Positions 2,831 through 20,619 of a stretch of 32,000 nt of DNA are shown here, piece after piece (the first letter of the stretch is position 1; every line of letters starts with the position of its first letter). The translations under genes were made by a program, and so were the position numbers. The stretch is from contig JAGVOT010000123.1 of assembly GCA_020052615.1 (NCBI GenBank), positions 174 to 32,173 of the forward strand, read 5' to 3'. Below the pieces are notes generated by a model. That model was given only the letters and a program-made list of their open reading frames with translations, was not told the origin of the DNA and searched no databases. The stretch is from Nitrospirota bacterium (GTDB taxonomy: Bacteria; Nitrospirota; UBA9217).

Positions 2831-2862
2831 GCAGCACATCCTCGAGGCGAGAGTCCACTCCT

Positions 2863-4140
2863 ATGAACGAATCGTTCAACCGGCGCGTCTCCTCCAATTT
2901 CCTGTGGTCGCTCGTGAGCGAAGCAACATCGAAAGGTGTGGTGTTTGTCACCAACATCTATCTGGCGAGGGTCCTCGGCGTATCCCAGTTCGGCGTATTT
3001 GCTCTTGCCCAGACCATAACCTTCTACTTCTGGTGTGCAGCCGATCTCGGCCTGAACCTATACGGGATCCGGGAGATCGCAAAGGCACGGGAGCAGGCCC
3101 CGCAAGTGATCAATGTTCTGCTGACGCTCAGGGCGGTTTCCGGCGCCGTCGCATTCCTTCTCTACACGCTGACCATCTTCCTCGTGGACATGCCCGTACC
3201 GCGAAAGCTGGCCTTCATCGGCTGCGGCCTCTATCTGATGACCTTCGCGCTCTATACGGACTGGATCTACAAGGGGCTTGAGCGATTCAAATATATAGCA
3301 TACGGCAGTTTTCTATCGTCCGGAGCATTCTTGGTGGCGACCGTCTCTCTGGTCAGGAGCGGAAACGATCTGGTGAAGGCCTCGTTCCTCTGGTCCCTTT
3401 CTTTTCTTCTGGGGTCTGTTTCGCTGCTCTTTTTACTCTCCAGGAGCCAGGGCATACGGTTAAGGCCTGATTTCCGCTTCGACGAATGGCTTCTGCACAT
3501 CAAGAGTTCGGTGCATTTCTCGATTTCCGGCATTCTCTGGGCAATCTGCCGTTTTCTTCCCGTGGTCCTGATCGGATGGTATTACACCTCCTATGAGGTG
3601 GGGCTGTTCTCCGCTCCCTACCGCATCATCATTGCGCTGGGTGTCGCCGGCTTCATGATTCCCATGGCGTTCTATCCGGCGCTGTCGGAAATGTACCTGC
3701 GGAATCGTACTGCGTTCCTGGAGATCAACAGGAAGCTTCGGCGCATCATGTTTATCGTCGGCCTGACGGTCGGCATTGCGGGGACCGTGTACGGCGATGT
3801 GCTGATCGAGATGCTCTTCGGGGACCAGTATGCCAAGGGCGTACCGGTCTTCAGGATCCTTGTCTGGTTCATGGCCCTCTATTTTATCCGACAGGCATAT
3901 GGCAGCGCCCTCTTATCCGCAGGATTCGAACGAACCTACAACCTGGCAGCCGTGGCGGGCGTTCTTTTTGCCGCGATCGCGGGATTTCTGTTGATACCTG
4001 CACAGGGGATCATTGGAGGCGCTGTTTCGCTGCTCATCTCGGAAGCTTCAACGCTGTGCTGCATGGCGGTCATCTACCATTTCGTCATCATCAGACCTTT
4101 CCAGGCGGGGCTCCTTGCCGGGGCGGGTGCGAATGAGTAA
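2863..4140 (+). CDS. wzx: Oligosaccharide/polysaccharide flippase (Wzx-like, MOP superfamily)
   Basis: 425-aa polytopic membrane protein. The N-terminus NFLWSLVSEATSKGVVFVTNIYLARVLGVSQFGVFALAQ is typical of polysaccharide biosynthesis (Wzx) proteins. I prefer the ATG at 2863 over the 2824 start, which overlaps the protease stop. The stop overlaps the next gene's start (ATGAGTAA). Confidence 0.8.
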   Translation: MNESFNRRVSSNFLWSLVSEATSKGVVFVTNIYLARVLGVSQFGVFALAQTITFYFWCAADLGLNLYGIREIAKAREQAPQVINVLLTLRAVSGAVAFLLYTLTIFLVDMPVPRKLAFIGCGLYLMTFALYTDWIYKGLERFKYIAYGSFLSSGAFLVATVSLVRSGNDLVKASFLWSLSFLLGSVSLLFLLSRSQGIRLRPDFRFDEWLLHIKSSVHFSISGILWAICRFLPVVLIGWYYTSYEVGLFSAPYRIIIALGVAGFMIPMAFYPALSEMYLRNRTAFLEINRKLRRIMFIVGLTVGIAGTVYGDVLIEMLFGDQYAKGVPVFRILVWFMALYFIRQAYGSALLSAGFERTYNLAAVAGVLFAAIAGFLLIPAQGIIGGAVSLLISEASTLCCMAVIYHFVIIRPFQAGLLAGAGANE

Positions 4141-5257
4141 CATCGCCGCGGGAAAACGGCTCTGCATCCTGCTTCCTTCGCTTCACCTGGGCGGGGTGGA
4201 AAAGATGATGCTGAATCTGGCCGGAGGGATCGATCCGGAGCAGTATGGTGTCGATATTGTGGTCTTGGAGCGAAAGGGCGACCTGCTGCGCTCAGTGCCC
4301 GGCAATGTGGAAGTCTTTGCCCTATCAGGTGAAAGCGTCGGGCTCGTAAAAGCCCTTGCATGTGCGCTGGCCTTTCGCCGCTATCTCCGGACGCGCGGGC
4401 CCCGTGTCGTCATTTCAGCGAAAGAACGGGCAAATCTGCTGAACGTTCTGGCTAGGATCGCCTTCGGGGGCAGCCATAGGTCCGTTATTACCCGGCATGT
4501 GCCTCTGGACGGGAAGCTAGTTGGTCGAGATGCAACGAGAGGTGTTCGCTGGCTCTACCGGACGATCCTGGGGAAGGCGGACCGGATCATCGCCGTCTCG
4601 AGCGGCATTGCCGACGATATCCGGTCACTGCTGCCGGGGCGTGATCGCCAAAAGGTGGAGGTCATCAGCAATCCGGTCGTGGATGATTCCCTTGTGAGGA
4701 TGTCGGAAGAGGGGATCGATGAACCCTGGCTGGCGCCTGGACACGGACCGGTTATCGTAGCATCGGGAAGGTTGTCCCATCAGAAAGGCTTCGATATCCT
4801 GATCGATGCATTTGCGCAACTCAGGGAACGTCTGCAGGCGAAGCTGATCATCCTGGGCGATGGGGAACTGAAGGGCCGGTTAATGGACCAGGTGCGGAGC
4901 AGGTCGCTCGAGAGCGATATCAAACTGCTCGGCGCAGTGAAGAATCCCTATCCCTACTACCGTCGCGCTGATGTCTTTGTTCTGTCATCGCGATGGGAAG
5001 GTCAGCCGCTCGTGCTGATCGAGGCGCTCGCGCTCGGCACGCCCGTCGTCGCGACGGATTGCAGGACCGGGCCGGCGGAGATCCTTCGGCAGGGAAGGTT
5101 CGGCGCGCTGGTGCCGCCGGAAGTTGCCGCCGCGCTTGCGCAGGGAATCTACCAAACATTGAAGATGGCTGACAAAGACATTGGAGTGTTTCCCTTGGAT
5201 GAGTACCGTGTTGCGACGGCATGCAGAAGATACGAGAAGATGATGAATTCATTGTGA
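4133..5257 (+). CDS. Glycosyltransferase family 4 (GT-B, retaining type)
   Basis: The N-terminus KRLCILLPSLHLGGVEKMMLNLA fits the family. The E-x7-E motif is in SSRWEGQPLVLIEALALGTPVVATD. The start at 4133 overlaps the wzx stop, and the upstream extension of the ORF track lies in the wzx coding frame region. Confidence 0.85.
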   Translation: MSNIAAGKRLCILLPSLHLGGVEKMMLNLAGGIDPEQYGVDIVVLERKGDLLRSVPGNVEVFALSGESVGLVKALACALAFRRYLRTRGPRVVISAKERANLLNVLARIAFGGSHRSVITRHVPLDGKLVGRDATRGVRWLYRTILGKADRIIAVSSGIADDIRSLLPGRDRQKVEVISNPVVDDSLVRMSEEGIDEPWLAPGHGPVIVASGRLSHQKGFDILIDAFAQLRERLQAKLIILGDGELKGRLMDQVRSRSLESDIKLLGAVKNPYPYYRRADVFVLSSRWEGQPLVLIEALALGTPVVATDCRTGPAEILRQGRFGALVPPEVAAALAQGIYQTLKMADKDIGVFPLDEYRVATACRRYEKMMNSL

Positions 5258-5286
5258 GACACAATACCTAAGGAAAAGTATGAACA

Positions 5287-6012
5287 ATGCCTGAGATGGT
5301 CGCTGAGCCGCATAGTCTTGCGGATCAAAGGAGAAAACGCGTCGTGAAGATAAGAAACGTACCCATTCGGGACTTCCTGAAAATGCGCAAGATGAAATTA
5401 ATTCTTGCTGTTAAGCCCTATACGTTGATAACGTATGCCAGGCTGTCCGAACTATATGAGAAAGCCGTTTCCCTTGAAAAAAAGCAGATCAACGGCAGTT
5501 TTGTTGAGTGCGGCGTATGCAACGGGGGAAGTGCGGGTATCCTCTCCTGGGTTGCCAGACATAATAGGAATAGGAGAATCTGGCTCTTTGATTCATGGGA
5601 GGGAATGCCAGAGCCAACTGCAAGCGATATTTCGTCGTTCGGAGCCCTCGGGAAAAAAGGAATAGCCTTGGGAAGTGAGATCAGGACACGAGAACTGCTG
5701 TTTGGAAAACTTGCATTGAGAACTGACAATATCCGTCTGGTAAAAGGCTGGTTTAACGATACCATTATTCCGCAGAAAGAAGCCATCAGCGACATAGCTC
5801 TTCTGCACTTGGATTGTGACTGGTATGAATCGGTAAAGTACTGTTTGAATGAGTTGTATGATCGCGTTGTTCAAGGCGGCTATGTGTTCATAGACGATTA
5901 CGGAGATTGGAAGGGCTGTAAAATGGCTGTTGATGAGTTCATACGGGAGCGGGGACTGAGCGTGGAATTGATCAAGATTGATTATACGGGAGTCTTCTTA
6001 CAGAAGAAATAA
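5287..6012 (+). CDS. TylF/MycF-type SAM-dependent O-methyltransferase
   Basis: GSFVECGVCNGGSAGIL (SAM-binding glycine-rich loop) and LLHLDCDWYESVKYCLNELYDRVVQGGYVFIDDYGDWKGCKMAVDEF match the macrocin-O-methyltransferase-like family pattern. The start is ambiguous, with in-frame Met codons further in (MRKMKL). Confidence 0.75.
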   Translation: MPEMVAEPHSLADQRRKRVVKIRNVPIRDFLKMRKMKLILAVKPYTLITYARLSELYEKAVSLEKKQINGSFVECGVCNGGSAGILSWVARHNRNRRIWLFDSWEGMPEPTASDISSFGALGKKGIALGSEIRTRELLFGKLALRTDNIRLVKGWFNDTIIPQKEAISDIALLHLDCDWYESVKYCLNELYDRVVQGGYVFIDDYGDWKGCKMAVDEFIRERGLSVELIKIDYTGVFLQKK

Positions 6013-6068
6013 TGTCTATGGTTACCACGGTGAACCGAGAGACGCAAATGGTATCGTCCGATTGAATA

Positions 6069-6989
6069 ATGATCATGAATAGAGAACACAGACTGCCGAA
6101 TCTTATTTTGGGCGGCCCGGGAAGAACGGGCACGACATCATTGTTCGAATATCTGCTGCAGGTTTCGCAAATATGCGGGTCCCAGAAGAAAGAAACGAAT
6201 TTCTTTCTCGGCCCGCTCTATGGCAGGCCGTTATCCCCTGTTGTCGACTATGCACGGTTGTTCGATCGCTGCAAGGAACGTGACTATCGATATGTTGTTG
6301 AGTCGACCCCCTCGTATTTTCTCGGTGGACGCAAGATTGCCGAGGCAATGAGTGCAGTGCTCGGTGACTTCAAGATCGTATTTACTTTGCGCGAACCTGT
6401 CGAACGGTTTATATCGGGATACTGGCATGTAAAGAGCAAGGTGTTGCCGGGTGAGAATATGAGCATCGAGGAATATCTGGATCGCGCAATAGATATGCCC
6501 ATAGAGAAGATTCGGGAATATAACGACATAAGTTATGCGATTCTCGGTGAAGGTAGCTATGTTGATCATCTTGAACAATGGTACGAAACTGTCGGACCAG
6601 AAGCAATTCATATTATATTTTATGAGAATATGCTGAGTGATATTGATGATACCCTCCAGGGTTTGCTGCAATGGCTTGAACTCGAGGTCGACGACGCGAT
6701 AACCTTCCCCTATACGAATAAGTCGATATCGCTCCGATCTTCGACCTTGCAGAAAATTGCCGGCATGCTGAACAGGGCGGGTGAGCCTTTTTTGAGAAAG
6801 AACCAACGGATTAAGAATATCATGGGTTCTTTGTATTATCTGATAAATGCGAAGAAAGAAAGAGAAACGTGTCCGAGCAAGGTGCGAAAATATCTTGAAG
6901 GCCATTATGAGGTGCCGAATAAGAGACTCTCGGCTTTTTTAAGACAAAACGGGATAACCAACCTGCCGCAGTGGATTGTCAATGCATGA
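6069..6989 (+). CDS. PAPS-dependent sulfotransferase family protein
   Basis: A 5'-PSB-like loop LILGGPGRTGTTSLFEYL and a 3'-PB-like motif TLREPVERFISGYWH. About 300 aa, cytoplasmic, no TM segment. Encoded in markedly AT-richer DNA. Confidence 0.75.
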   Translation: MIMNREHRLPNLILGGPGRTGTTSLFEYLLQVSQICGSQKKETNFFLGPLYGRPLSPVVDYARLFDRCKERDYRYVVESTPSYFLGGRKIAEAMSAVLGDFKIVFTLREPVERFISGYWHVKSKVLPGENMSIEEYLDRAIDMPIEKIREYNDISYAILGEGSYVDHLEQWYETVGPEAIHIIFYENMLSDIDDTLQGLLQWLELEVDDAITFPYTNKSISLRSSTLQKIAGMLNRAGEPFLRKNQRIKNIMGSLYYLINAKKERETCPSKVRKYLEGHYEVPNKRLSAFLRQNGITNLPQWIVNA

Positions 6990-6994
6990 TATCC

Positions 6995-7750
6995 ATGAAA
7001 GAAATGAACATGGCGAGAAAAAAAGTACTCGGAACTTCTTTTGACAGTATAGGAATGGCCGCGCTATTAAAGTCCGTGGATGAGGACATTCAACGGGGTA
7101 TTCGGTTCAGGATCGCTTTTATTAACCCGGAGTTTGTCGTTGAAGCGAGGGCGAATCCAAGATTGTCACGTTATCTGGAAACCTGCAGGTACAATCTGCC
7201 GGATGGGGTGGGGATTCTTTGGGCGTACAAACAACTTCATTCTCAGAAAATGCCGGAACGAGTTACCGGCACGGATTTCGTGCCGTCTGTTTGCCGGCTG
7301 GCGAGCGCAAGAGAGTACGCGCTCTTTTTTCTGGGCGGGGCACAGGGTGTGGCGGAAAAGGCTAAGCACACATTGGAAAAGATGGTCCCCGGGGTAAAGA
7401 TCGTCGGGGTCATGCACGGATATGATGAAAATTCTGAAGATATCGTAGGCATGATCAATAGGAGCGGCGCGGATATCCTCATGGTATGCACGGGCAATCC
7501 CCGCCAGGAGGAGTGGATCGAACGGCATTTTGAACGTCTGACGGCCAAGATGGTGTTCGGCAACGGCGGGGCACTGGATTTCTGGTCAGGGGCTGCAAAA
7601 CGAGCTCCCCAGTGGATGATCGGGCTGAACCTGGAGTGGCTGTACCGTCTGATGCAGGACAGAAGCTGGAAACGGCTGCGAAGGCAATTGCGGCTCTTGA
7701 CCTTTGTCCGGCTGGTCCTGATAGAGAAAGTGATGGCACGGAACCCATGA
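6995..7750 (+). CDS. WecB/TagA/CpsF-family glycosyltransferase (GT26)
   Basis: Family-typical stretches are FINPEFVVEARANP, PDGVGILWA, FFLGGAQGVAEKA, GNPRQEEWI and GGALDFWSGAAKRAPQWMIGLNLEWLYRL. 6995 is the first ATG after the sulfotransferase stop, and 7004 and 7010 are alternatives. The TGA overlaps the next ATG (ATGA at 7747-7750). Confidence 0.8.
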   Translation: MKEMNMARKKVLGTSFDSIGMAALLKSVDEDIQRGIRFRIAFINPEFVVEARANPRLSRYLETCRYNLPDGVGILWAYKQLHSQKMPERVTGTDFVPSVCRLASAREYALFFLGGAQGVAEKAKHTLEKMVPGVKIVGVMHGYDENSEDIVGMINRSGADILMVCTGNPRQEEWIERHFERLTAKMVFGNGGALDFWSGAAKRAPQWMIGLNLEWLYRLMQDRSWKRLRRQLRLLTFVRLVLIEKVMARNP

Positions 7751-9510
7751 GACCAAGAATGGCTGCAGTGTTCGTACGAATGGCGTTCATAATTGCTGTT
7801 TCGCTCTCCCTTGTCATGTTCGCTGCAAATGGAGCGGATCCAGGGCATATCCTGTCCTGTGCCCATGCAGCTCCGGCCGGGGAAAAGCCGTGGGTCGATG
7901 CCCGGTCCCATGCGTCCTTTTCGGCGGCCCTTGCGGCGATAGGAAGTGCTCCCGCGACCCTGCTTATCTCCGAACGGCAGCAGATATCCGTCAGCACGAC
8001 CGTTCCCTCGAACGTCGGCCTGCTCTTCCTGGCGGGCGGGTCGCTAGACCTGGCCGCGGGCGTCACGGCGACCATCAACGGCCCACTCCAGGTCGGTCTC
8101 TTCCGGGTCTTCGGAGGGGAAGGGGCGGTCGTCCTGGGGCCGGGTTCCGTGGTAGAGGTCCATCCCGAATGGTTCGGAGCGAAACCGGACGGAGCACAGG
8201 ACTCCGGACCGGCCATTCAGAAGTGCATTGATGCCTCGCCCGCGGGCACGGTCGTACGGTTCGCGGGAGGAACCTATCTAACCTCGGTCCCCATCGCGTT
8301 CCGACCGGACCGTTCGTACATCGGCAGTTCCCACAGCGGGAGCGGAACGGTCATCAAGCAGAAGGACGCAGCCCGCATTGCGCCGGCGATCTTCGTGTCG
8401 AAGGGATGGACCGACGGCGCATCGATAGCGGACAACCGCGTGATCTTCCGGGACCTGCTGCTCCACGGTAACAAGAAGAACAATCCGAACGCCGCGACCC
8501 ACGGCATCCTCAGCATGAACTACTATTCAGTGTTCGAGAACATTACCGTGTACGATGCGCCGGGTGACGGCATCCGATTCACCGACCGAAACGGCGCGAA
8601 CCGCGTCATCGCGAGTACTGCGGTCGGGAATAAGGTCCTCCACGGCAAGTTCATCAAGTGCGGCGGGAGCGGCATTCGGGGCGACAACAACGGCAGCGCC
8701 CTCACGGACGGGTATCTTATCGACAACGAGATCGGCAATTGCGGCGAGCATGGCATCTCTATAGAGCGGGGCGCGGGTTGGAAAGTCCTGGGCAATTACG
8801 TGTACGGCGTCGGCCGGAATGGCATCGTCCTCGACCGGGGCTGGAACAGCCAGATACTGGGAAACACTATTGACAATTATGGTCTGAGCGCGATCAAGGG
8901 AACCTATGCCGGGCTCGCGATGAACACGATCAGCGATAACGTTCCCTGTCTCATCAACGATAACATCATTCGTCTGCGCGATCCGGCCGAGGGTTCAACG
9001 TACCGCGGAATAACGGTCACTACGGGGGCCGGGACGAAGGAGGCCGAGGTCATCATTGCAGGCAACATCGCGAGCCTTGCCAAGAGGGGGACGTTCTTTG
9101 TTTCCGGCGGCAACGGTGGCGGGACCGCGCAACTGTCGGACAACCGCGTCTCCGGGGCGCTGGCCACCATCGCTCGAACGGGGGGCTCGATGGTCATCGT
9201 CCACCGGGACAACAGTTTCGATATTGCTTTCGCAAGGTTCCCCGGCAACGATCCGACCCCGTCCGTCCTGTCCGGTTCGCAGTACCGAACGATAAACACG
9301 GCTCCGACCGTGATCAGCGGCTTTGACGACGGTTATGACGGCCAGAGGATCGTTGTCGTCGTCGACGATGCATTCACGGCCATGGATTTCACGGGATCGC
9401 AGCTCTCAGGCAACGGTGGAGTTGATTGGAAACCCCGACGCGGCGACCACATGGAGTGTGTCTTTGACGGAAGCGCGTGGCACTGCATGACCAGCGGGAG
9501 GCCCCGGTAG
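7747..9510 (+). CDS. Secreted right-handed parallel beta-helix protein (pectate-lyase-3-like; putative polysaccharide glycanase, lyase or epimerase)
   Basis: Signal peptide MRPRMAAVFVRMAFIIAVSLSLVMFAANGA. The hallmark HPEWFGAKPDGAQDSGPAIQKCIDASPAGTVVRFAGGTYL is followed by repeated beta-helix coil signatures (NITVYDAPGDGIRF, GNKVLHGKFIKCGGSGIRG, IDNEIGNCGEHGISI, LGNYVYGVGRNGIVL, LGNTIDNYG). Confidence 0.7.
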   Translation: MRPRMAAVFVRMAFIIAVSLSLVMFAANGADPGHILSCAHAAPAGEKPWVDARSHASFSAALAAIGSAPATLLISERQQISVSTTVPSNVGLLFLAGGSLDLAAGVTATINGPLQVGLFRVFGGEGAVVLGPGSVVEVHPEWFGAKPDGAQDSGPAIQKCIDASPAGTVVRFAGGTYLTSVPIAFRPDRSYIGSSHSGSGTVIKQKDAARIAPAIFVSKGWTDGASIADNRVIFRDLLLHGNKKNNPNAATHGILSMNYYSVFENITVYDAPGDGIRFTDRNGANRVIASTAVGNKVLHGKFIKCGGSGIRGDNNGSALTDGYLIDNEIGNCGEHGISIERGAGWKVLGNYVYGVGRNGIVLDRGWNSQILGNTIDNYGLSAIKGTYAGLAMNTISDNVPCLINDNIIRLRDPAEGSTYRGITVTTGAGTKEAEVIIAGNIASLAKRGTFFVSGGNGGGTAQLSDNRVSGALATIARTGGSMVIVHRDNSFDIAFARFPGNDPTPSVLSGSQYRTINTAPTVISGFDDGYDGQRIVVVVDDAFTAMDFTGSQLSGNGGVDWKPRRGDHMECVFDGSAWHCMTSGRPR

Positions 9511-9513
9511 CGG

Positions 9514-10839: not shown

Positions 10840-10887
10840 AGAGATGACCGAATCAGCGGATCACCGTACAGGCAGGAGGAGAAGATA

Positions 10888-11601: not shown

Positions 11602-11626
11602 CCGCGGGAGTCCGCGAGGAGACGGC

Positions 11627-12313: not shown

Positions 12314-12374
12314 AGGCAGGCACGAGGGTCGGCAGGTGTCGTGTTCCAGGGATGTATTTATCAGAGGAGGTCGG

Positions 12375-14543
12375 ATGATCGTGAGACGAATATGTTCGCA
12401 TGCGTGCGGTGTCCTGATGGTACTGGCGGCAAGCGTACTGCCGGCTGCCGCGCAGGTAAGTTCGATGCAGGCTGTTGATCCGCAGGCATCTCAGGCGTTT
12501 ATGAACGCCCTGTCGAAAGGCGATGTGCAGGCGATGCATAAGATGCTGGATGACCTGGGGAAAGCCAAGGCGCCGGTCAGCGCGGAACCCGCGCCCGTGA
12601 GGCCGTCGGAGCGCAAGCCGTCGCTGGTCGAGCGCACACTGTCCGGCAATCTGCCGACCGCCGATGCGCCGCTGCAGCAGTTCGGTTACGAGGCCTTTCT
12701 CAGGACGACCTCCACCTTCTTCACGCCGACCTCGGTCCCCGTCGGACCGGATTATCTTATCGGGCCGGGCGATCAGTTCACCCTCACGCTCTGGGGGACG
12801 GCCGAAGGCATCTTCATGGTGCAGGTCACCAAAGAGGGTGAGATCACCCTGCCGAAGGTCGGCGTCGTGTCAGTCGCCGGCCTGCGGTTCGGCGATCTTG
12901 AGAGGACGATCAGGCGCCATCTTCTCCGTTATTATTCGAATTTCAACCTCAGCGTCGCCATGGGGAACCTGCGGACCATGACGGTCTACGTGGTCGGGGA
13001 GGTTGCGAATCCGGGGAGCTACGCCCTGAGCTCGCTTTCCACGGTTTACAGCGCCCTGTTCGCGGCGGGCGGGCCTACCAAGCAGGGCTCGCTGCGGAAG
13101 ATCCAGGTGCTCCGCTCGGGAAAGGTCGTCAAGACCCTTGATCTATACGATTTTCTCCTGCAGGGTGACAAGAGCCATGATATCAGGCTGCAGCAGGAGG
13201 ACACGATCTTCGTGCCGCTCATAGGCGAGGTCGTCGGCGTCGCGGGTACGGTGTACCGTCCCGCGATCTATGAACTGAAGGGCGGGGAAACGATCGGCGA
13301 TCTGATCAGGACCGCCGGAGGGCTCATGCCGGTGACGCTCGGAAGCAGGCTGCAGCTCGCTCGCTTCGAAGACAACGAGCGCAAAGTGGTCAAGGATATC
13401 AAGGTTGACATGACGAGCACGGCTGCATCGAAGGACGGTGCGCTCTCCGACAAGGTCAGAGGCATGGATATGCTTACGATCCTTCCCATCTACGACAAGG
13501 TGTGGGAGATGGTGAGCCTGCGCGGCAGCGTTCAGCATCCCGGAGAATATCAATGGAGGACGGACCTGAAGCTGCGCGAGGTCATTTTGCTCGGACAGCC
13601 CCTGCCCACTGCAGACCTGCAGAAGGCCGACGTGATACGCATCAAGGACGGCCTCCGTGACCGCGAGGTCATCACCGTCGATCTCGCGGCCCTGCTTGCC
13701 GGGCCCGGGAGCGGGCAGGAGGACATCCTGCTGCGGCCCCGGGACCAGATCCGGGTGTATTCGGCCTATCGCGAGACGGAAGCGATCAGCCTGTCAGGAG
13801 AGATCGTCAGGCCGGGAACGTTCGAGATCCAGAGCGGAGAGCGTTTGAGCGACCTGCTGCGGCGGGCGGGTGGATTCACGGCCGAGGCTTATCCCTACGG
13901 CGCCGTCTTCAAAAGGCGGGATGTGAAGGACGCTCAGGACAAGAACCTGCGCGCATTCATCTCCAGGATGCAGTCGCAGATACTGCAGTCCGCGGCGGGC
14001 GGCACGGCAGCGGCGGTTTCGGCCGAAGAGGCGTCCTTTGCCAGGTCCGAGCTGGCCATGAACCAGGGGCTCCTGGAAAACCTGAAACGGATGCAAGAGC
14101 AGTTCGAGGGACGCGTTGCGATCACGTTGTCCGCGAACATTGAGCAATGGGCGGGAACGAAGGACGACTTGGTCCTGAAGGACGGCGACGCCCTGTATGT
14201 TCCCAAGCGTGCGCAGGAAGTAATGATCATGGGGGAGGTGCACAGCCCGGGCGCCCAGCTCTACCTTCCCGGACAGAAGGTGGGGCGGTATCTCGCTGCG
14301 ACCGGCGGGCCGACGACCTTTGCGGATAAAGAGCAGGTGTTCGTGATCCAGGCGAACGGCTATGCATTCAGCGGCGACTCACCCAGCGTCGGCGACATCG
14401 AGAACGTAGAGCTCCAGGCAGGGGACACGATCTTCGTGCCGCAGGACCTGGAGCGGCACGCTTCCATGCGGCTTACCAAGGATATCGTTGATATCATGTT
14501 CAAGACCGCGGTTATCATCGCGACAATCACCATATTGTTCTGA
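12375..14543 (+). CDS. wza: Outer-membrane polysaccharide export protein (OPX, Wza/KpsD-like) with multiple SLBB domains
   Basis: GAGGAGG precedes the ATG at 12375. The signal peptide is ...ASVLPAAAQ, not a lipobox. The Poly_export signature is PDYLIGPGDQFTLTLWGTAEG...ITLPKVGVVSVAGL. SLBB-like units repeat (VYVVGEVANPGSY, VAGTVYRPAIYEL, LRGSVQHPGEYQW, LSGEIVRPGTFEI, IMGEVHSPGAQLY). The C-terminus has a hydrophobic helix, FKTAVIIATITILF. Confidence 0.85.
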   Translation: MIVRRICSHACGVLMVLAASVLPAAAQVSSMQAVDPQASQAFMNALSKGDVQAMHKMLDDLGKAKAPVSAEPAPVRPSERKPSLVERTLSGNLPTADAPLQQFGYEAFLRTTSTFFTPTSVPVGPDYLIGPGDQFTLTLWGTAEGIFMVQVTKEGEITLPKVGVVSVAGLRFGDLERTIRRHLLRYYSNFNLSVAMGNLRTMTVYVVGEVANPGSYALSSLSTVYSALFAAGGPTKQGSLRKIQVLRSGKVVKTLDLYDFLLQGDKSHDIRLQQEDTIFVPLIGEVVGVAGTVYRPAIYELKGGETIGDLIRTAGGLMPVTLGSRLQLARFEDNERKVVKDIKVDMTSTAASKDGALSDKVRGMDMLTILPIYDKVWEMVSLRGSVQHPGEYQWRTDLKLREVILLGQPLPTADLQKADVIRIKDGLRDREVITVDLAALLAGPGSGQEDILLRPRDQIRVYSAYRETEAISLSGEIVRPGTFEIQSGERLSDLLRRAGGFTAEAYPYGAVFKRRDVKDAQDKNLRAFISRMQSQILQSAAGGTAAAVSAEEASFARSELAMNQGLLENLKRMQEQFEGRVAITLSANIEQWAGTKDDLVLKDGDALYVPKRAQEVMIMGEVHSPGAQLYLPGQKVGRYLAATGGPTTFADKEQVFVIQANGYAFSGDSPSVGDIENVELQAGDTIFVPQDLERHASMRLTKDIVDIMFKTAVIIATITILF

Positions 14544-14633
14544 CGGACGACCGATATCCCTCGCTTCCCAAAGGGCCGAACCCTCTGACGGTCCCGGGAG
14601 ACAGGAACGGAGGAAAGGACGGCGACGCACACC

Positions 14634-15347
14634 ATGAATGCCCGTGACGACGAGATCAACCTGATGTACTACTGGAACGTTCTGTGGCGGCATAAGCGGC
14701 TCATTATCGGGCTGTGTGCCGTTTCCGTCGCCCTGGCCGCAGGCGTCAGCCTGCTCCTGCCCAAGTATTATCGGGCGGAAACCGTCCTGATCGCGACCGG
14801 TTCCGAAGCCGGCGGACTGGGAGCGGCGTTGTCCTCCATCCCTCTGGCGGGCGTGCTGTCCGTAGGCGCCGGGATCCAGACATCAACGGACAAGGTCCTC
14901 GTTGTCCTGAACAGCAGGACGATAGCGGAGCAAGTGATCACGCGGTTTGATCTCCTCCGGGTCTTCAATGAGGACGACTGGGACCGGCAGAAGGGGGCGT
15001 GGAAGGACCCCGCCGATCCGCCGCTTCTGCAGGATGCCGTCAAACGATTGACCGAGGATGTCGTTGATATCAGCACGAGCAAGGAAGGCGCGATCACCAT
15101 TTCCGTCCTTTGGAAAGATGCGAAACTGGCGGCAGACATTGCCAATCAGTACGTCGCATCGATGGCGCAGATGCTGAATGAGAAAGCGATCAACGTGACG
15201 GTCCAGGTCGTTGACCGGGCCGTGCCGGCGGACAGAAAGGACAGGCCGAAAACGGGGCTCATTGCGGCGCTTGCAGCCGTGACGTCGCTCTTTTGCGGCC
15301 TCCTTGCGGCGTTTGCTCTAGAAATTCGGAAAAGACATCATTCATAG
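14634..15347 (+). CDS. wzz: Short Wzz-type chain-length determinant (PCP) without a kinase domain
   Basis: The Wzz N-terminal signature is EINLMYYWNVLWRHKRLIIGLCAVSVALAAGVSLLLPKYYRAETVL, with a second TM at the C-terminus (LIAALAAVTSLFCGLLAAFAL). Only about 160 aa lie between the TMs. No Walker motifs. Confidence 0.7.
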   Translation: MNARDDEINLMYYWNVLWRHKRLIIGLCAVSVALAAGVSLLLPKYYRAETVLIATGSEAGGLGAALSSIPLAGVLSVGAGIQTSTDKVLVVLNSRTIAEQVITRFDLLRVFNEDDWDRQKGAWKDPADPPLLQDAVKRLTEDVVDISTSKEGAITISVLWKDAKLAADIANQYVASMAQMLNEKAINVTVQVVDRAVPADRKDRPKTGLIAALAAVTSLFCGLLAAFALEIRKRHHS

Positions 15348-15394
15348 ATCTTTAGGTAAAGGGAGCCATCATTGAAGACAAGGAGTGCGCGTCC

Positions 15395-15973
15395 ATGAAA
15401 AGAACCCCCTTTGCGGTCATTTTCTCTCTTACCCTGCTGCTGGTCGTCGGACCCGCCCCGGCATCGGCCGCGTCAAGCGCGAATTACAAGAGAACGATGG
15501 AGCGGTACTCCGTTCCCGATGTCACGCTGGTCAACCAGGACGGGAAGCGGGTGCGCCTGCTCGACCTGGTGGACGGCGGCAAACCGGTGGTGCTCGATTT
15601 CATTTACGGGACCTGCACGACCATCTGCCCTGTCCTGTCGGCGAACTTCACGAATTTCCAGAGAAAGCTGGGGGAGGGTGTCGGCAAGGTCCAGCTCGTT
15701 TCCATCTCGATCGATCCCGAGAATGACACGCCCATGGTCATGAAGAAGTACCTCAAGAACTACCTGGCGCGGCCGGGCTGGGATTTTCTGACCGGCAGCC
15801 GGGAAGACATCGACCGCGTCATGCGGGCCTTCAGCGCCTATGTGCCCAACAAGATGTCCCACTACCCGATCATGTTCCTGCGGGCGCCCCGCGGCGACCA
15901 ATGGGTGCGCATCTACGGACTGATCGGAACGAAGGACTTCCTGGCGGAGTACGAGAAGGTGGCGCGGCCATGA
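15395..15973 (+). CDS. SCO1/SenC-family thioredoxin-fold protein (copper chaperone / thiol-disulfide oxidoreductase)
   Basis: AAGGAG (15380-15385) precedes the ATG. Signal peptide ...APASAASS. The CxxxC motif is in VLDFIYGTCTTICP, with SISIDPENDTP and a downstream conserved-position His (KMSHYPIMFL). Confidence 0.85.
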   Translation: MKRTPFAVIFSLTLLLVVGPAPASAASSANYKRTMERYSVPDVTLVNQDGKRVRLLDLVDGGKPVVLDFIYGTCTTICPVLSANFTNFQRKLGEGVGKVQLVSISIDPENDTPMVMKKYLKNYLARPGWDFLTGSREDIDRVMRAFSAYVPNKMSHYPIMFLRAPRGDQWVRIYGLIGTKDFLAEYEKVARP

Positions 15974-17685
15974 AAACGAACTTCGTGATGCGATGGCGCC
16001 GTTCCCTGCGGGCCGGTGCCGCGGTACTGGTCATGCTGCTCCTGTCCCAATCCGCTCCAGGGGCATCGGACAACGACCCGCTCCTTGCGGGGATGGCACC
16101 GGCTGAGATCATGCGGCTTGGCGAGAACATGTACCGGAACGGGACCCTGCCTTCCGGCGAGCCGGTCCAGGCGGTTGTCCAGGGAGACATTCCCGTGGCC
16201 GGTACGATGTTCACCTGCGCGAATTGTCACATGCGGAGCGGCGTGGGCTCCATCGAGGGCACGATCATCACGCCGCCGACGAACGGCGCGGAGCTGTACC
16301 GGCCGAAGAAGCCCGGCGCGCGGCACAGCGAGGCCCAGGAGCAGCGGCGGCCCGCCCCATTCATCACGCCTCATGACCGCCCGGCCTATACCGACGCATC
16401 CCTGGGACACGTGCTCGCCTCCGGCATCGATCCAGCGGGCAGCGTTCTTGACCCGATCATGCCGCGGTACCTGCTCGAACCGCGCGACCTTGCCATCCTG
16501 GTCCACTACCTGAAGAACCTGTCCGCGGACCTCTCGCCGGGGGTAAGCGAGGAGACGCTCGACTTCGCGACGATCGTGGCAGGGGACGTCGACCCTGCCG
16601 ACCGCGACGCCATGCTGATGCCGCTCAAGCTGTTCATTGCCAATCGCAATGCCCGGGTGCCGCTCTTCCAGGGGAGGAAAAGGACCGGGATCTTTGCGGA
16701 GGAAATGGACCTGTCCTACCGGAAGCTTTCCCTGTCGGTCTGGGAGCTCACGGGAACGCCCGATACCTGGCGGTCGCAGCTCGAAGCGTACTACCGGAAG
16801 AAGCCGGTGTTCGCTGTGCTCGGGGGGATTGCAAAGGGGGATTGGCTGCCCATTCATGCATTCTGCAATCAGAACGGCATACCCTGCATCATGCCGTCGA
16901 CCGACAAGCCGGTTCTTTCCGAAGATAACTGGTACGTGCTGTATCTGTCGCGGGGTCCGGCCCAGGAGGGTGAATCAGCAGCGCGCTTTCTCCATATGCG
17001 AAAGGACCTTGCGGGAGATGCGGGCCGGATCGTGCAGGTCTACCGGGACCGGGGGAAGGGCCCGGTCATTGCCCGGGCGTTCCGGGAGACCCTGTTGGAG
17101 ATGGGCCTGCTGCCGCCGCGCGAGGTCGTCGTGAAGGCCGGCGCCCCCCTCGATGCCGGTCTGCTGAAAGGCATGGGACCGGGTGTTGTAGCGGCTCTTT
17201 GGCTGGATGCCGACGATCTCGCCCGTATGCGGTTCGCCGATAAACGGTCGGGCCCGGCGACGATCCTGGCGTCCGGCGGGATGCTCGGCGAACGGCTGAA
17301 CGCGGTGCCCGATCAGGTTCGCCGGTCAACGTACATCACCTATCCCTACCGCCTGCCGAAGGACCGCAAGGCGACTCATCAGGTCGTGACCACATGGCTG
17401 AAGCAGAACCGTATTCCGGCATCGAACCTCAGGATCTCCGCGGACGTCTACGCAATGGGAAGCATGCTGACCGACGTGTTCATGCATATGAAGCGCAATT
17501 ACTACCGCGATCACTTTCTCGATGTCTTCGATATGCAAAGGGACCAGACCTACACGGTCCTGAACTATCCGCGCCTCAGCTTCGGCCCCGGGCAGCGCTA
17601 TGCGTCGAAAGGATGCTACCTGGTCCAGCTGACGGAAGGACCTGCCCCCGAACTTGTTCCGATGACCGACTGGGTCGCCCATTGA
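15970..17685 (+). CDS. Secreted mono-heme c-type cytochrome domain fused to a type-I periplasmic-binding-protein-like domain
   Basis: The ATG at 15970 overlaps the Sco TGA (ATGA). Signal peptide ...SQSAPGASD. A single CANCH heme-binding motif has a candidate distal Met in DPIMPRYLL and the class-I-like ending LAILVHYLKNL. The remaining ~400 aa (FATIVAGD..., VFAVLGGIAKGDW..., NGIPCIMPSTD, VQVYRDRGKG..., AALWLDADD) read like a LivK/amide-binding-type PBP. The domain call is by eye only. Confidence 0.65.
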   Translation: MKTNFVMRWRRSLRAGAAVLVMLLLSQSAPGASDNDPLLAGMAPAEIMRLGENMYRNGTLPSGEPVQAVVQGDIPVAGTMFTCANCHMRSGVGSIEGTIITPPTNGAELYRPKKPGARHSEAQEQRRPAPFITPHDRPAYTDASLGHVLASGIDPAGSVLDPIMPRYLLEPRDLAILVHYLKNLSADLSPGVSEETLDFATIVAGDVDPADRDAMLMPLKLFIANRNARVPLFQGRKRTGIFAEEMDLSYRKLSLSVWELTGTPDTWRSQLEAYYRKKPVFAVLGGIAKGDWLPIHAFCNQNGIPCIMPSTDKPVLSEDNWYVLYLSRGPAQEGESAARFLHMRKDLAGDAGRIVQVYRDRGKGPVIARAFRETLLEMGLLPPREVVVKAGAPLDAGLLKGMGPGVVAALWLDADDLARMRFADKRSGPATILASGGMLGERLNAVPDQVRRSTYITYPYRLPKDRKATHQVVTTWLKQNRIPASNLRISADVYAMGSMLTDVFMHMKRNYYRDHFLDVFDMQRDQTYTVLNYPRLSFGPGQRYASKGCYLVQLTEGPAPELVPMTDWVAH

Positions 17686-17715
17686 GCGCAACGACGGAGC
17701 GGAGAGCATGAGGGG

Positions 17716-19263
17716 ATGAGCATATTTCTGAACCGCTGCCGTCCGATCGGGCTATTCGGTCTTTTCCTGGTCGTGTTCCTGCTGTCCGCCGCCTTTCCTG
17801 CCCGGTCATCCACGTACGTCGGCCTCGATGATGAAGCACCGGTGTATACCATTCTGTCTCGGCTGGAGGCGGAGGGGATCGTCAACTCCGGTCTGCTTGC
17901 CACCAGGCCGATCAGCAGAAATGCCGCGCTGCGGCTCCTTCTGGAGGCGGAACAGAAAGCCGACGGGCGAAGCGAGTTCATCAAGGGTCTGATCGTTGAA
18001 TTGCGGCGCCGTTTACGACCGGAGCAGCCGGGGGCGGACGGACCGAAGATCCGGGGTTCTGTTTATGCGCGGTATGTGCACACGGACGCCGCGGTGCGGA
18101 CCCTTTCCTATCCCGGAGCCGACCGTGAACTGATGCAGGCGCTGAATGAGAACAATGAAGGCGATCTCTACGAGCCCGGGTCCAACTATCGGTTCGGTCT
18201 TACCGCCCATATCGACGATGCCGGACCATTTTCACTTTTTCTCAATCCCGAACTGAGAGCGGACGACGAGCATGAGCAGGGTGTTCTGAGGACCGGCTAC
18301 GGGGTCATCGGATTCTCCTGGATCGATATTGTCATAGGCAAGGATGCCCAGTGGTGGGGGCCCGGCCATCACGGCGCCCTGTTGCTGTCCAGTAACGCGG
18401 AACCGCTGACGATGATCAAGTTCACGGGGCCGGTGCCGCAGACCCTTCCGTGGATCCTGAAGTATCTCGGACCGTTCCAGTACAATGTGTTCTTTTCACA
18501 GCTCGAGAAGGACCGGAGCGATTATTCCAGGCCCTATTTCTGGGGAATGCGACTCGATTTCAAGCCGCATCGGTACATCGAGATCGGCCTGGAGAGGACG
18601 GCGATCCTGGGTGGACAGGGAAGGCCGACCGACGCCGGGACCTGGCTTGACAGCGCGCTCGGGAGCAGCGAACACGACGCTTCCGGCAATCCCGGCGATC
18701 AGCGCGCAGGCGCTGACGTGAAGATAACGCTTCCATTCCCATGGCAGCCGATGCAGATATACTGGGATCGGGCAGGAGAGGAAAACAGGCAGGAAAATTG
18801 GCGTCTCCCCTATAAATACGCAGATATCTACGGTCTCTATCTTCCCTCGTTGATGGGATTCGAGCGTATCGACCTCAGGGCGGAATATTCAGAAAACAAA
18901 TTGAACAAACAGGCCTACGTATGGTATACCCACGGAACGTACACTGCGGGATATACGTACCAGGGTATGATCATGGGCCATCACATGGGCACGGAATCGC
19001 GTGATCTCTTTCTGGAATTGGCCTGTCTGGTTCCGGAAAAAAACGCCAGGATCTCATTGTCCTATGATCAGGAAACGCATGACCTGGCTGGTCCGGTGAG
19101 CGAGACGGTGAGTGAATGGTCGCTCAGCGGAAGATCACTGGTATCGCAGCAGATCGAGGTCTCGGCTTCGCTCGGGTACGGAAGCATCGAGAATCCCGAA
19201 AACGAGGCCGGTCCGCCCGCAAGGGTTTATGAATTTGACATGGTCGTTCGGTATGTGTTCTAG
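17716..19263 (+). CDS. wzi: Capsule-assembly Wzi-like outer-membrane protein
   Basis: Signal peptide ...SAAFPARSS. The N-terminal helical motif is YVGLDDEAPVYTILSRLEAEGIVNSGLLATRPISRNAALRLL, which I recall from Wzi-family proteins. About 480 aa of alternating beta-strand-like sequence follow, ending ...MVVRYVF with an aromatic C-terminus typical of OM barrels. Confidence 0.6.
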   Translation: MSIFLNRCRPIGLFGLFLVVFLLSAAFPARSSTYVGLDDEAPVYTILSRLEAEGIVNSGLLATRPISRNAALRLLLEAEQKADGRSEFIKGLIVELRRRLRPEQPGADGPKIRGSVYARYVHTDAAVRTLSYPGADRELMQALNENNEGDLYEPGSNYRFGLTAHIDDAGPFSLFLNPELRADDEHEQGVLRTGYGVIGFSWIDIVIGKDAQWWGPGHHGALLLSSNAEPLTMIKFTGPVPQTLPWILKYLGPFQYNVFFSQLEKDRSDYSRPYFWGMRLDFKPHRYIEIGLERTAILGGQGRPTDAGTWLDSALGSSEHDASGNPGDQRAGADVKITLPFPWQPMQIYWDRAGEENRQENWRLPYKYADIYGLYLPSLMGFERIDLRAEYSENKLNKQAYVWYTHGTYTAGYTYQGMIMGHHMGTESRDLFLELACLVPEKNARISLSYDQETHDLAGPVSETVSEWSLSGRSLVSQQIEVSASLGYGSIENPENEAGPPARVYEFDMVVRYVF

Positions 19264-19542
19264 TGCAGATGAATGCAAAAAAAGAGGCTTTCGGTTTGCC
19301 TGGCTGATTGGTTTTACGTAATATTCAAAATAGGCCATTCATTTTGAGCTTTGCAAGGAGGGTGTGATTGCTCAACATGTTGAAAATATAGAATAAATGT
19401 ATCAATAACATTGGTATTCATTTTGCTTAATAAAACGCGGGAACAGACCTTTTCTGATATCTTTAAAGCTTGCTGCAATAATTCATTCATGACATGACGT
19501 CCTGTCTTCCATCCGATCGGCGGTTGCTTGAAGGAGTTCACG
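19264..19542. promoter_or_regulatory. AT-rich intergenic region upstream of wecA (probable promoter/regulatory region)
   Basis: This is the only long non-coding gap in block A. A spot count of line 19381-19440 gives 15/60 G+C (25%), against 60-70% in the flanking genes. It contains the imperfect inverted repeat GAATAAATG-N9-CATTggTATTC (19391-19419). AAGGAG (19531-19536) precedes the wecA ATG. Confidence 0.4.
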
Positions 19543-20619
19543 ATGCATTTGATCACGGCCTTCCTCATAGGATTTTTTCTCACAACAGTAATTACTCCGA
19601 AGGTCATCAGGTTCGCTATAACCTGTAATTGCCTGGATATCCCCGGCGGAAGACGGACCCACAAAAAGGTCACGCCCCGCTGGGGCGGTTTTGCCTTCTT
19701 TATCGGCGTATTGCCGGTCCTCTTCGCGGTAGGTTCCGGCAGGATGCTGATCTCCTACGTTGCGGCATCAGCTGTCATGATCGGCATCGGAATGCTTGAC
19801 GATCGAAAGCAACTGCCCTACACGGTCAAGTTCGGCGGCATGCTCGCGGCAGTTGCGATCGTCATCTTCGGCGGCAACGTGGTGGTCCATACCATAGGCG
19901 ATTACGGGCCCTGGGGGACGGGCGACCTTGGCCGCCTCAGTATTCCCTTTACGTTCTTCGGGATCGTCGGGGTAACGAATGCAATAAACCTGCTGGACGG
20001 TCTCAACGGCCTTGCAGGAGGTGTGTCCCTTCTTGGATTTTTATTCATGGGGATCGCCGCCGCCCATGGCGGGAACATGCCGCTTGCGATCGTTTGCTTT
20101 GCTTTCGTAGGCGCGCTCGCTGCGTTCCTCCGGTTCAACTTCCCTCATGCCAGGGTCTTCATGGGAGACACGGGGAGCCTGTTCCTGGGATTTTCTCTTT
20201 CTGTCGTCGCCGTAGTTCTTACCCAGAACAGGCACCATCCGGTGGATCCGATGCTGCCCGTACTCGTGCTTTTCATCCCCATTTTTGACGCGCTTCGCGT
20301 CATGTTCGTCAGGATGTTGAACCGGAGGAATCCGTTTCATGCGGATAAAAGCCATCTGCATTATTTACTCGTTCGACGAAGGGTCCCTTTCCCGATTACC
20401 GTTGCCTTTCTCTGGGCTTTGACCGCGGTGTTCGGCATTGCAGCGCTCATCATGATCGATGAACCGTCATTTTCTTTTCTCGAGATCGCGGTGTACGGTG
20501 CCGTCATTATGGGTTTGCTGACGGAAGCGCTCGTTTGGAGGCAGAAGAAGTACGCCCCGTTCGACGGCGGGGTGACGAGGCGACGGCTTCTCAGCCCGCG
20601 AGGCACCTTCCTGCTGTAA
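19543..20619 (+). CDS. wecA: Undecaprenyl-phosphate sugar-1-phosphate transferase, MraY/WecA family (initiating glycosyltransferase)
   Basis: NAINLLDGLNGLAGG and FMGDTGSLFLGF motifs in a polytopic membrane protein. I prefer the ATG at 19543, which has a good SD, over the TTG at 19528. Confidence 0.85.
   Translation: MHLITAFLIGFFLTTVITPKVIRFAITCNCLDIPGGRRTHKKVTPRWGGFAFFIGVLPVLFAVGSGRMLISYVAASAVMIGIGMLDDRKQLPYTVKFGGMLAAVAIVIFGGNVVVHTIGDYGPWGTGDLGRLSIPFTFFGIVGVTNAINLLDGLNGLAGGVSLLGFLFMGIAAAHGGNMPLAIVCFAFVGALAAFLRFNFPHARVFMGDTGSLFLGFSLSVVAVVLTQNRHHPVDPMLPVLVLFIPIFDALRVMFVRMLNRRNPFHADKSHLHYLLVRRRVPFPITVAFLWALTAVFGIAALIMIDEPSFSFLEIAVYGAVIMGLLTEALVWRQKKYAPFDGGVTRRRLLSPRGTFLL

Follow-up and report, generated by a model that had tools for sequence, protein, structure and literature searches.

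A compact Wzx/Wzy locus predicted to build a sulfated and methylated surface polysaccharide in a probable Nitrospirota genome

Gene content of the locus

At positions 2863-20619 of a 32,000-nucleotide stretch of DNA from a Nitrospirota bacterium (assembly GCA_020052615.1, contig JAGVOT010000123.1; the whole stretch is called the window here) lies a gene locus that encodes glycosyltransferases, a predicted sulfotransferase (P0001), methyltransferases and proteins of polysaccharide assembly and export. We consider it likely that this locus is Wzx/Wzy-dependent and builds a capsule-like surface polysaccharide, probably with a three-sugar repeat that bears sulfate and methyl groups and is decorated before export. 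The main argument that the sulfotransferase has the glycan of the locus as its acceptor is synteny: a small cassette of these genes recurs in relatives with the sulfotransferase in place.

Inspection of the open reading frames (ORFs) and their start sites revealed a single unbroken, tightly packed row of plus-strand genes, several of which overlap at start and stop codons (Table 1). The genes named in a preliminary description, made from the letters of this DNA, all proved to be real, intact ORFs located at or within a few codons of where they had been placed. Families were assigned with Pfam and NCBIfam profiles. The three glycosyltransferases (WecA-type, GT4 and GT26) gave strong matches to the families already named for them, and the sulfotransferase and the three methyltransferases (TylF and two class I enzymes, here MT1 and MT2) likewise matched the expected types. 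Genes for Wzx, a Wzy-like protein, an outer-membrane polysaccharide export protein (OPX), a polysaccharide co-polymerase (PCP) and a Wzi-like protein were present as claimed, the Wzy-like match lying below the PF04932 cut-off. Family searches also bore out the statement that no genes for the synthesis of sugar nucleotides or of 3′-phosphoadenosine 5′-phosphosulfate (PAPS) are found among the window genes. Two features had been missed: the beta-helix gene and the Sco1/SenC-like gene with its 571-aa partner (15395-17685), a pair embedded between the PCP and Wzi genes.

Membrane topology was assessed by a simple hydropathy scan, in which the Wzx, Wzy-like and WecA-type proteins were polytopic, matching their assigned roles. 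The sulfotransferase had no membrane segment, and the scan found no signal peptide in the sulfotransferase, the methyltransferases or GT26, the sole hydrophobic stretch among these being the C terminus of MT2. A promoter and terminator scan of the locus returned sites no more numerous than in shuffled sequence.

Table 1 Genes of the locus, with positions in the window and the evidence for each assignment
Feature	Position	Strand	Evidence
Wzx flippase (MOP family)	2863-4140	+	PF01943 2e-32; eight hydrophobic segments
GT4 glycosyltransferase	4133-5257	+	PF13692 4e-37, PF00534 1e-35
TylF/NovP/MycF-type sugar O-methyltransferase	5287-6012	+	PF05711 7e-44
Predicted PAPS-dependent sulfotransferase (P0001)	6069-6989	+	PF00685 1e-12, PF13469 2e-11
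GT26 (WecG/TagA/CpsF family) glycosyltransferase	6995-7750	+	PF03808 2e-57
Secreted right-handed beta-helix protein (P0050), 587 aa	7747-9510	+	PF13229 4e-8, PF12708 5e-8
Wzy-like protein (Wzy_C/O-antigen-ligase superfamily)	9514-10839	+	PF04932 3e-6, 27.7 bits (cut-off 31.7); nine hydrophobic segments
Class I S-adenosylmethionine (SAM) methyltransferase MT1	10888-11601	+	PF08241 4e-20
Class I SAM methyltransferase MT2	11627-12313	+	PF13489 4e-19; GGAG-type ribosome-binding site before ATG at 11627
OPX	12375-14543	+	PF02563 6e-18, PF10531 4e-38
Short PCP (Wzz plus GNVR), 237 aa, without kinase domain	14634-15347	+	PF02706 4e-10, PF13807 1e-5; two terminal membrane segments
Sco1/SenC-like protein	15395-15973	+	PF02630 4e-22
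Exported protein, 571 aa	15970-17685	+	Paired with Sco1/SenC-like gene
Wzi-type outer-membrane capsule-anchoring protein	17716-19263	+	PF14052 1e-83
WecA/MraY-family polyprenyl-phosphate N-acetylhexosamine (HexNAc)-1-phosphate transferase	19543-20619	+	PF00953 7e-41; ten hydrophobic segments

The sulfotransferase and its PAPS supply

P0001 carries the motifs GPGRTGTTS at the 5′-phosphosulfate-binding (5′-PSB) loop, VVESTPSYF, and REPVERFIS at the 3′-phosphate-binding (3′-PB) site. The 5′-PSB loop matches the pattern G-x-x-K/R-x-G-T-T/S and the 3′-PB motif the pattern R-x-P-x-x-R-x-x-S; the loop aligns to the KKGGT loop of heparan-sulfate 3-O-sulfotransferase 3 (3-OST-3). In the same comparison, Glu78 aligns with the Glu of the EKTPSYF motif (MEKTPSYF in 3-OST-3), and R108 and S116 with their counterparts, REPVERFIS standing opposite RDPVTRAIS. 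We take Glu78 to be the catalytic base, as in the 3-OST and heparan-sulfate N-sulfotransferase (NST) enzymes. An alignment of 33 homologues shows no change at G16, G21-S24 (the loop glycines and T22-T23-S24), E78, R108 or P110; R113 and S116 reach at least 90% conservation. The residues expected of a working enzyme, in the 5′-PSB loop, at the 3′-PB Arg and Ser and at the Glu, are therefore all kept. Both PAPS-binding motifs are present, as the preliminary description had it, with the correction that the first has Arg (Arg19) at the place of the Lys found in the animal enzymes.

Lys at this loop position has a functional role in the animal heparan-sulfate and cytosolic enzymes, and its replacement could in principle mean a catalytically dead protein. 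We regard this as highly improbable. Position 19 alternates between Arg and Lys across the 33 homologues, while the remaining loop, the Glu base and the 3′-PB residues stay invariant, a pattern of purifying selection. The RxG form of the motif has also been described for NodH, an active carbohydrate sulfotransferase (PMC11625862). The dead-enzyme explanation was rejected on conservation, Arg being invariant in the seven closest orthologues. By these alignments the exchange is normal variation for the family, and the sulfotransferase looks catalytically active.

Placement among solved structures was consistent across methods. A single-sequence search of the PDB retrieved the bacterial structure 3rnl (5e-9) and heparan-sulfate 3-O-sulfotransferases (5e-7). 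A profile of the family extended this to 3rnl at 7e-45, the heparan-sulfate N-deacetylase/N-sulfotransferase NDST1 at 6e-30 and the 3-OSTs at 1e-24 to 1e-22, whereas cytosolic, small-molecule sulfotransferases (SULTs) scored 8e-9 or worse, and over the C-terminal half only. The AlphaFold (AF2) model of P0001 reached a predicted local distance difference test (pLDDT) score of 91.6, and Foldseek searches with it gave TM-scores of 0.57-0.70 for NDST1 and the 3-OSTs; SULT and tyrosylprotein sulfotransferase (TPST) structures reached about 0.4, the same order as in the profile search. Both rankings put P0001 nearer to the heparan-sulfate carbohydrate enzymes than to the small-molecule SULTs. By profile and predicted fold, the sulfotransferase thus looks intact and appears to belong with the NST/3-OST-like, carbohydrate-acting enzymes. 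With NDST1, the 3-OSTs and 3rnl (from Alicyclobacillus) it has in common the fold, both PAPS-binding motifs and the Glu motif E-x-T/S-P-x-Y-F; it differs in the Arg of the 5′ loop and is only 17-22% identical to them. An extra helical C-terminal part is found in P0001 and in 3rnl. Unlike the NDST1 setting, the locus has no deacetylase that would free an amine for N-sulfation.

P0001 has few close homologues: a word-indexed search returned 45 homologous proteins, and only one other representative of a 50%-identity cluster scored near P0001. When an alignment of seven sequences was scanned over the genome collection, only distant relatives of 26-28% identity were found. From the genomic context and the PAPS synthesis genes described below, the sulfate acceptor of P0001 is predicted to be a saccharide.

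PAPS would have to come from outside the window, and a search of the whole genome, which is 97.8% complete, found three APS-kinase (adenosine 5′-phosphosulfate kinase) matches, all outside it. On contig C76, a 595-aa fusion of PUA, ATP sulfurylase and APS kinase, the last as the C-terminal domain, constitutes a Sat-CysC PAPS synthase. CysQ lies directly upstream (287 bits, above the equivalog cut-off), and the minus-strand module at about 1700-6700 (L002, L005, L056) continues with a chromate-transporter-family protein and a second sulfotransferase (363 aa, PF13469 9e-32) that is unrelated to P0001 and has no adjoining polysaccharide genes. The genome therefore encodes a PAPS pathway, with Sat-CysC, CysQ and two further APS-kinase genes. 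One of these, a stand-alone APS kinase of 216 aa, is on the contig of the window itself (C85), about 136 kb away at about 166.7-170.2 kb (L001), and is flanked by a CapD/WbpM-like dehydratase and an NAD-dependent epimerase. The surroundings resemble a second glycan-related site that has a PAPS step to itself; searches there with PF00685, PF13469 and PF03567 gave no sulfotransferase. The Sat-CysC fusion occurs in three of five congeners (77-82% identity), which suggests that the PAPS pathway is older in the genome than the cassette. An APS-kinase fusion is also present in the genome of the relative L007, introduced below. Of the conditions named in the preliminary description as refuting the predicted sulfation, those open to computation (lost catalytic residues, a grouping with non-carbohydrate sulfotransferases by profile and fold, a missing PAPS pathway) all came out in its favour.

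A conserved cassette of probable horizontal origin

Orthology was established from the gene contexts of the closest relatives together with reciprocal BLAST. These relatives are a metagenome-assembled genome (MAG) labelled Proteobacteria (L007) and the metagenome contigs L009/L010, L037 and L038. Across them, Wzx, GT4, the sulfotransferase, the beta-helix protein, the Wzy-like protein, GT26 and MT2 form an orthologous set at 42-72% identity, in the order Wzx-GT4-sulfotransferase-(GT26)-beta-helix-Wzy-(GT26)-MT2, whole or in part. L038 has exactly the window order GT4-sulfotransferase-GT26-beta-helix, minus TylF, and in L037 a fragment upstream of the sulfotransferase resembles the GT4 C terminus. 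In four independent contigs the sulfotransferase itself, at 49-66% identity, is still flanked by GT4 on one side and by the following cassette gene on the other, be it GT26 or beta-helix. The window Wzx is 50-52% identical to those of L007 and L009, and GT4 is 54-57% identical to its cassette orthologues. GT26 is 72% identical to its orthologue in L037, 62% in L038 and 42% in L007, and the beta-helix protein is 62% identical in L007 and 68% in L038. The Wzy-like protein is 49% identical to orthologues that carry precomputed PF04932 matches. MT2, at 59-62% identity to the methyltransferase that closes the cassette of L007 and L009, is among the best conserved cassette genes. The cassettes of L007 and L009 each have a PCP gene next to them, that of L009 an OPX gene too. 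Distant members of the P0001 family (34-35% identity) also adjoin Wzx in polysaccharide loci. These comparisons suggest a very small, conserved and transferable cassette comprising three transferases, one heparan-sulfate-type sulfotransferase and one methyltransferase.

In L009 the beta-helix gene has shrunk to a 223-aa ORF (11258-11929) in which the GT26 end is matched (44% over 70 aa) as well as a portion of the beta-helix protein (53% over 134 aa). The GT26 that follows downstream is not the same one (24% identity). The cassette seems to have decayed or been rearranged here. In the window, the beta-helix protein begins with a signal-peptide-like N terminus, its ATG overlapping the GT26 stop. 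Its Atlas features resemble PF12708, tailspike-like and GH28-like clusters (scores of 0.95-0.97 for PF12708/tailspike-like). A PDB search with the protein gave no sequence match, and an AF2 model built from a four-sequence alignment was poor (pLDDT 51). From its family matches, the protein is a candidate glycan depolymerase or epimerase of the cassette.

The three methyltransferases differ in how far they belong to this set. TylF matches 4cdz (5e-25), NovP (2e-24) and MycF (9e-21) in the PDB; the motifs DSxxG, LDxDxYES and DDY align, and its segments DSWEG, LDCDWYES and IDDYG match NovP and 4cdz, with the motifs presumably holding the metal-binding residues. In L007, L009, L038 and, apparently, L037, no TylF gene separates GT4 from the sulfotransferase. 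Its closest homologues (64-68%) occur in Wzx loci of 39% GC in Thermodesulfobacteriota MAGs (L041-L044), where Wzx is followed in order by a sulfotransferase from a different subfamily, TylF, two class I methyltransferases and GT4. A Dadabacteria CSP1-2 MAG (L061) has the same arrangement of Wzx, TylF and two methyltransferases without a sulfotransferase. In L041-L044 and L061 the arrangement adjoins a hydantoinase-like gene and another methyltransferase, and L043 and L044 also carry a UDP-N-acetylglucosamine (UDP-GlcNAc) 2-epimerase and a UDP-sugar dehydrogenase. In three other loci the closest TylF homologues directly follow Wzx together with two class I methyltransferases; one TylF homologue was found outside any glycan locus. 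This recurrent module of TylF and methyltransferases after Wzx supports a predicted methylation of the glycan made by the present locus. BLAST found no MT1 orthologue in L007 or L009, only matches of 25-27%. On this distribution, TylF and MT1 appear to be additions local to this genome, and MT2 a conserved member of the cassette.

The distribution of the cassette also bears on its origin. Among about 300 sampled genomes of the phylum, five congeners included, neither the sulfotransferase (best match 28% identity, E 6e-14) nor the beta-helix protein had an orthologue, and in DNA-level comparison the congeners share only the OPX and PCP genes of the locus. In congener G042 the OPX (56% protein identity) and PCP (57%) adjoin another cassette (contig C7 455000-475000; L035), with a CapD-like protein, GT4, GT2, a DUF6337 membrane protein and another Wzx; that cassette is broken by two IS30-like transposase genes, a sign that glycan cassettes are swapped at this site. 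The RpoB of the genome is 96% identical to that of G042 and about 57% to that of the L007 genome, and the cassette proteins are 42-62% identical to those of L007, so that the cassette proteins are as similar between phyla as RpoB. The GC content of TylF and of the sulfotransferase is 46% against 58% for the genome. The named OPX homologues come from Nitrospirota MAGs. An insertion of these two genes as one low-GC unit is only partly borne out: the sulfotransferase occupies its ancestral cassette position in all relatives, TylF being the only extra gene there. Taken together, the absence from congeners and phylum, the presence in a MAG of another phylum, the swapped cassette of G042, the RpoB contrast and the low GC indicate that the biosynthetic half (2863-12313) is probably a horizontally acquired, serotype-like cassette joined to export genes already present in the genus.

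Some neighbours of the locus recur as well. Near the L007 cassette lie an adjacent pair (L007 1-2154) consisting of a Sco-like protein and a 573-aa partner, 54% and 44% identical to the Sco1/SenC-like and 571-aa proteins of the window, as well as an S8-related protein and a WecA-family gene (33%); no Sco1/SenC-like pair was seen in L009. It is conceivable, though quite doubtful, that the seven-gene core is a self-contained, phylum-hopping unit that makes one sulfated, methylated trisaccharide-repeat capsule, accompanied in at least two carriers by a Sco1-like protein and its cytochrome-like or binding-protein-like partner, and that this coat is tied to periplasmic copper or redox handling in bacteria of anoxic habitats. 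The S8 protease of the window (737-2830) has C-terminal repeats with DNA-level paralogues at 65-79% identity on contigs C129, C131, C30 and C42, and it matches a 1368-aa protein beside the L007 cassette (3020-7126) at 44-56% in four segments. A GGDEF gene lies downstream of the WecA-type gene, and the remainder of the window holds, besides the S8 protease, FdhD, a NikR-controlled ECF nickel/cobalt transporter, an OmpA-like gene and riboflavin genes.

Proposed pathway, alternatives and significance

In the pathway that we propose, the WecA-type enzyme would place HexNAc-1-phosphate on undecaprenyl phosphate, after which GT26 probably attaches the second sugar and GT4 the third. A trisaccharide as the minimal repeat, suggested in the preliminary description, fits the finding that an unrelated MAG has these three transferase types again in its orthologous cassette. 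On the cytoplasmic side, where both PAPS and SAM can be drawn on, the soluble heparan-sulfate-type sulfotransferase would add one sulfate, probably as an O-ester, and MT2 a methyl group, with TylF and MT1 adding further methyls in this genome. PAPS would be provided by the Sat-CysC synthase and the by-product PAP recycled by CysQ, both encoded on C76. The finished unit may then be flipped by Wzx and polymerised by the Wzy-like protein with the short PCP; the OPX would export the polymer and Wzi retain it on the cell, where the secreted beta-helix enzyme may trim or modify it.

Several observations weigh against this scheme. GT26 passes the TIGR00696 superfamily cut-off but scores below the equivalogs TarA (142 bits, cut-off 350) and WecG (115, cut-off 323), and the WecA-type enzyme is also below its cut-off (TIGR02380, 138 bits against 326). 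The only UDP-GlcNAc 2-epimerase (Epimerase_2) homologue of the genome lies in a NeuB/DegT cluster (contig C71 58.4-62.4 kb; L016), and the supply of N-acetylmannosamine (ManNAc) for a TagA-like reaction is therefore not evident. Extra glycosyltransferases could be encoded elsewhere in the genome. The Wzy-like protein, below the cut-off for PF04932, falls in a superfamily that also holds ligases and O-oligosaccharyltransferases. No bacterial tyrosine kinase (BY-kinase) domain on the PCP and no phosphatase (Wzb) gene were found in the window, and the PCP is unusually short. In the PDB, MT1 and MT2 give only generic class I methyltransferase matches, and a look-up of public sequencing runs for 4133-9510 found none. 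A role of GT26 as a transferase of ManNAc or its uronic acid (ManNAcA) was considered and dropped, given the low equivalog scores and a UDP-ManNAc(A) supply that is not evident. The row of genes in L016, for a NeuB-type synthase, the UDP-GlcNAc 2-epimerase and a DegT-type aminotransferase, suggests a nonulosonic-acid (sialic-acid-like) pathway in this genome.

Three other explanations of the locus were weighed against a sulfated and methylated polymer. The claim of multiple methylation in the preliminary description stands as far as the genes go, three methyltransferases of which TylF has sugar-methylating relatives; as a property of the polymer it reaches further, with only MT2 conserved alongside the cassette. 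It is unlikely, but deserves some weight, that the polymer is sulfated and not multiply methylated, with MT2 or none of the three acting on it and TylF and MT1 serving nucleotide-sugar precursors or unrelated substrates. The generic matches of MT1 and MT2, the lack of TylF and MT1 in the orthologous cassettes and the TylF homologue outside glycan loci all speak for this, whereas NovP and MycF, TylF relatives of solved structure, are methyltransferases of sugar hydroxyls, TylF keeps the acidic motifs, and both the Wzx-linked module in three loci and the high conservation of MT2 argue for methylation of the glycan. An improbable variant is a short, non-polymerised glycan, in which the Wzy_C protein, as a ligase or O-oligosaccharyltransferase, would transfer sulfated, methylated trisaccharides singly to lipid A-core or to proteins, leaving the OPX, PCP and Wzi to another polymer. 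PF04932 takes in WaaL and PglL-type enzymes, and such a variant would agree with the sub-threshold match, with the missing BY-kinase and with OPX and PCP genes that are conserved in congeners beside a different cassette, and are hence not glycan-specific. It sits poorly with the PCP genes beside the L007 and L009 cassettes and the OPX gene beside that of L009, with the one-strand packing of the cassette with OPX, PCP and Wzi, and with the export genes of G042, which adjoin a Wzx cassette as expected of a swappable polymer locus.

The sulfotransferase might also act on a substrate foreign to the locus (for example a small metabolite, a nucleotide sugar or a glycolipid) and only happen to lie here. 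We hold this to be quite improbable. The second sulfotransferase, next to the PAPS synthase and outside glycan loci, indicates that sulfation here is not limited to polysaccharides, and lipo-oligosaccharides and glycolipids are the acceptors of those bacterial carbohydrate sulfotransferases that have been characterised best (PMC8205485, PMC11625862). Against it stand the gene position, kept in the four independent contigs, the distant family members that likewise adjoin Wzx, and the nearest solved relatives of known function, all of which act on polysaccharide chains.

Known systems offer partial parallels. Synechan of Synechocystis sp. PCC 6803, made by the xss genes, is a sulfated polymer of the Wzx/Wzy type whose chemistry is proven (Maeda et al. 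2021; PMC8205485); like the present locus with its Wzy-like gene, xss combines Wzx, Wzy and PCP genes with sulfotransferase genes, and in its published model lipid-linked units are decorated on the cytoplasmic side. It has eight glycosyltransferases, two sulfotransferases and no methyltransferases, on a cyanobacterial plasmid, against three, one (of heparan-sulfate type) and three here. The gene numbers of synechan agree with the composition of a chemically verified polymer (PMC8205485), whereas the product of the present locus is a predicted one. The wps-1 locus of Actinoplanes missouriensis, for which sulfation was predicted and not measured (Tezuka and Ohnishi 2026; PMC13390465), resembles the present locus, with its Wzy-like gene, in Wzx/Wzy/Wzz, the heparan-sulfate-type sulfotransferase WpsH, the SAM methyltransferase WpsF and the glycan-cleaving WpsE. 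Compared by description, wps-1 differs in its Gram-positive host, a second sulfotransferase of another family, a kinase-like protein and a GH26 hydrolase in place of a beta-helix protein. In Pontiella a methyltransferase and a sulfotransferase lie in a putative cluster, and sulfated exopolymers were measured (PMC7356697). Experiments have shown sulfation of a capsular polysaccharide by KpsS of Mesorhizobium loti (PMC11625862), and sulfation together with O-methylation of one glycoconjugate by NoeE and NoeI in the Nod factors of NGR234 (PMC4881576); compared by description, pathways and acceptors differ from those proposed here.

For the backbone, enterobacterial common antigen (ECA) offers a parallel. 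Its genes encode WecA, WecG, WecF, WzxE, WzyE and WzzE, and the WecA initiator, a GT26 enzyme and a third transferase make a trisaccharide unit. The present locus has in common with ECA and the TagO/TagA linkage unit a WecA-type initiator, GT26 and one more transferase, and it has Wzx, a Wzy-like protein and a kinase-less, Wzz-type PCP to handle the unit. It differs from ECA in a GT4 in place of WecF, in the added OPX, Wzi and genes for sulfate and methyl decoration, in matches below the equivalog cut-offs and in a UDP-ManNAc(A) supply that is not evident. With the group 1 capsules of E. coli and Klebsiella (Wza, Wzc, Wzb, Wzi) it has in common an OPX that resembles Wza and contains a Poly_export domain, together with a clear homologue of Wzi; it differs in that no Wzc kinase domain or Wzb phosphatase is found in the window, and its OPX carries four SLBB domains and is about twice as long as Wza.

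The rarity that the preliminary description ascribed to such loci was overstated at the genomic level, the wider P0001 subfamily comprising 204 representative clusters at E ≤1e-30. Wzx/Wzy loci that bear a sulfotransferase are already described and are frequent in genomes, and the current picture is unchanged by this one. Sulfated polymers have been measured in granular sludge, anammox granules and marine isolates, and the enzymes that produce them in non-cyanobacterial bacteria are largely unassigned (PMC10483923, PMC7356697). To these, the locus adds a candidate producer of a sulfated polymer in a probable Nitrospirota genome. The small, conserved, transferable cassette is the most useful feature of the finding. 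Because it is so small, it suits heterologous reconstitution, which could yield the first biochemically defined bacterial polysaccharide sulfotransferase of the heparan-sulfate-like clade.

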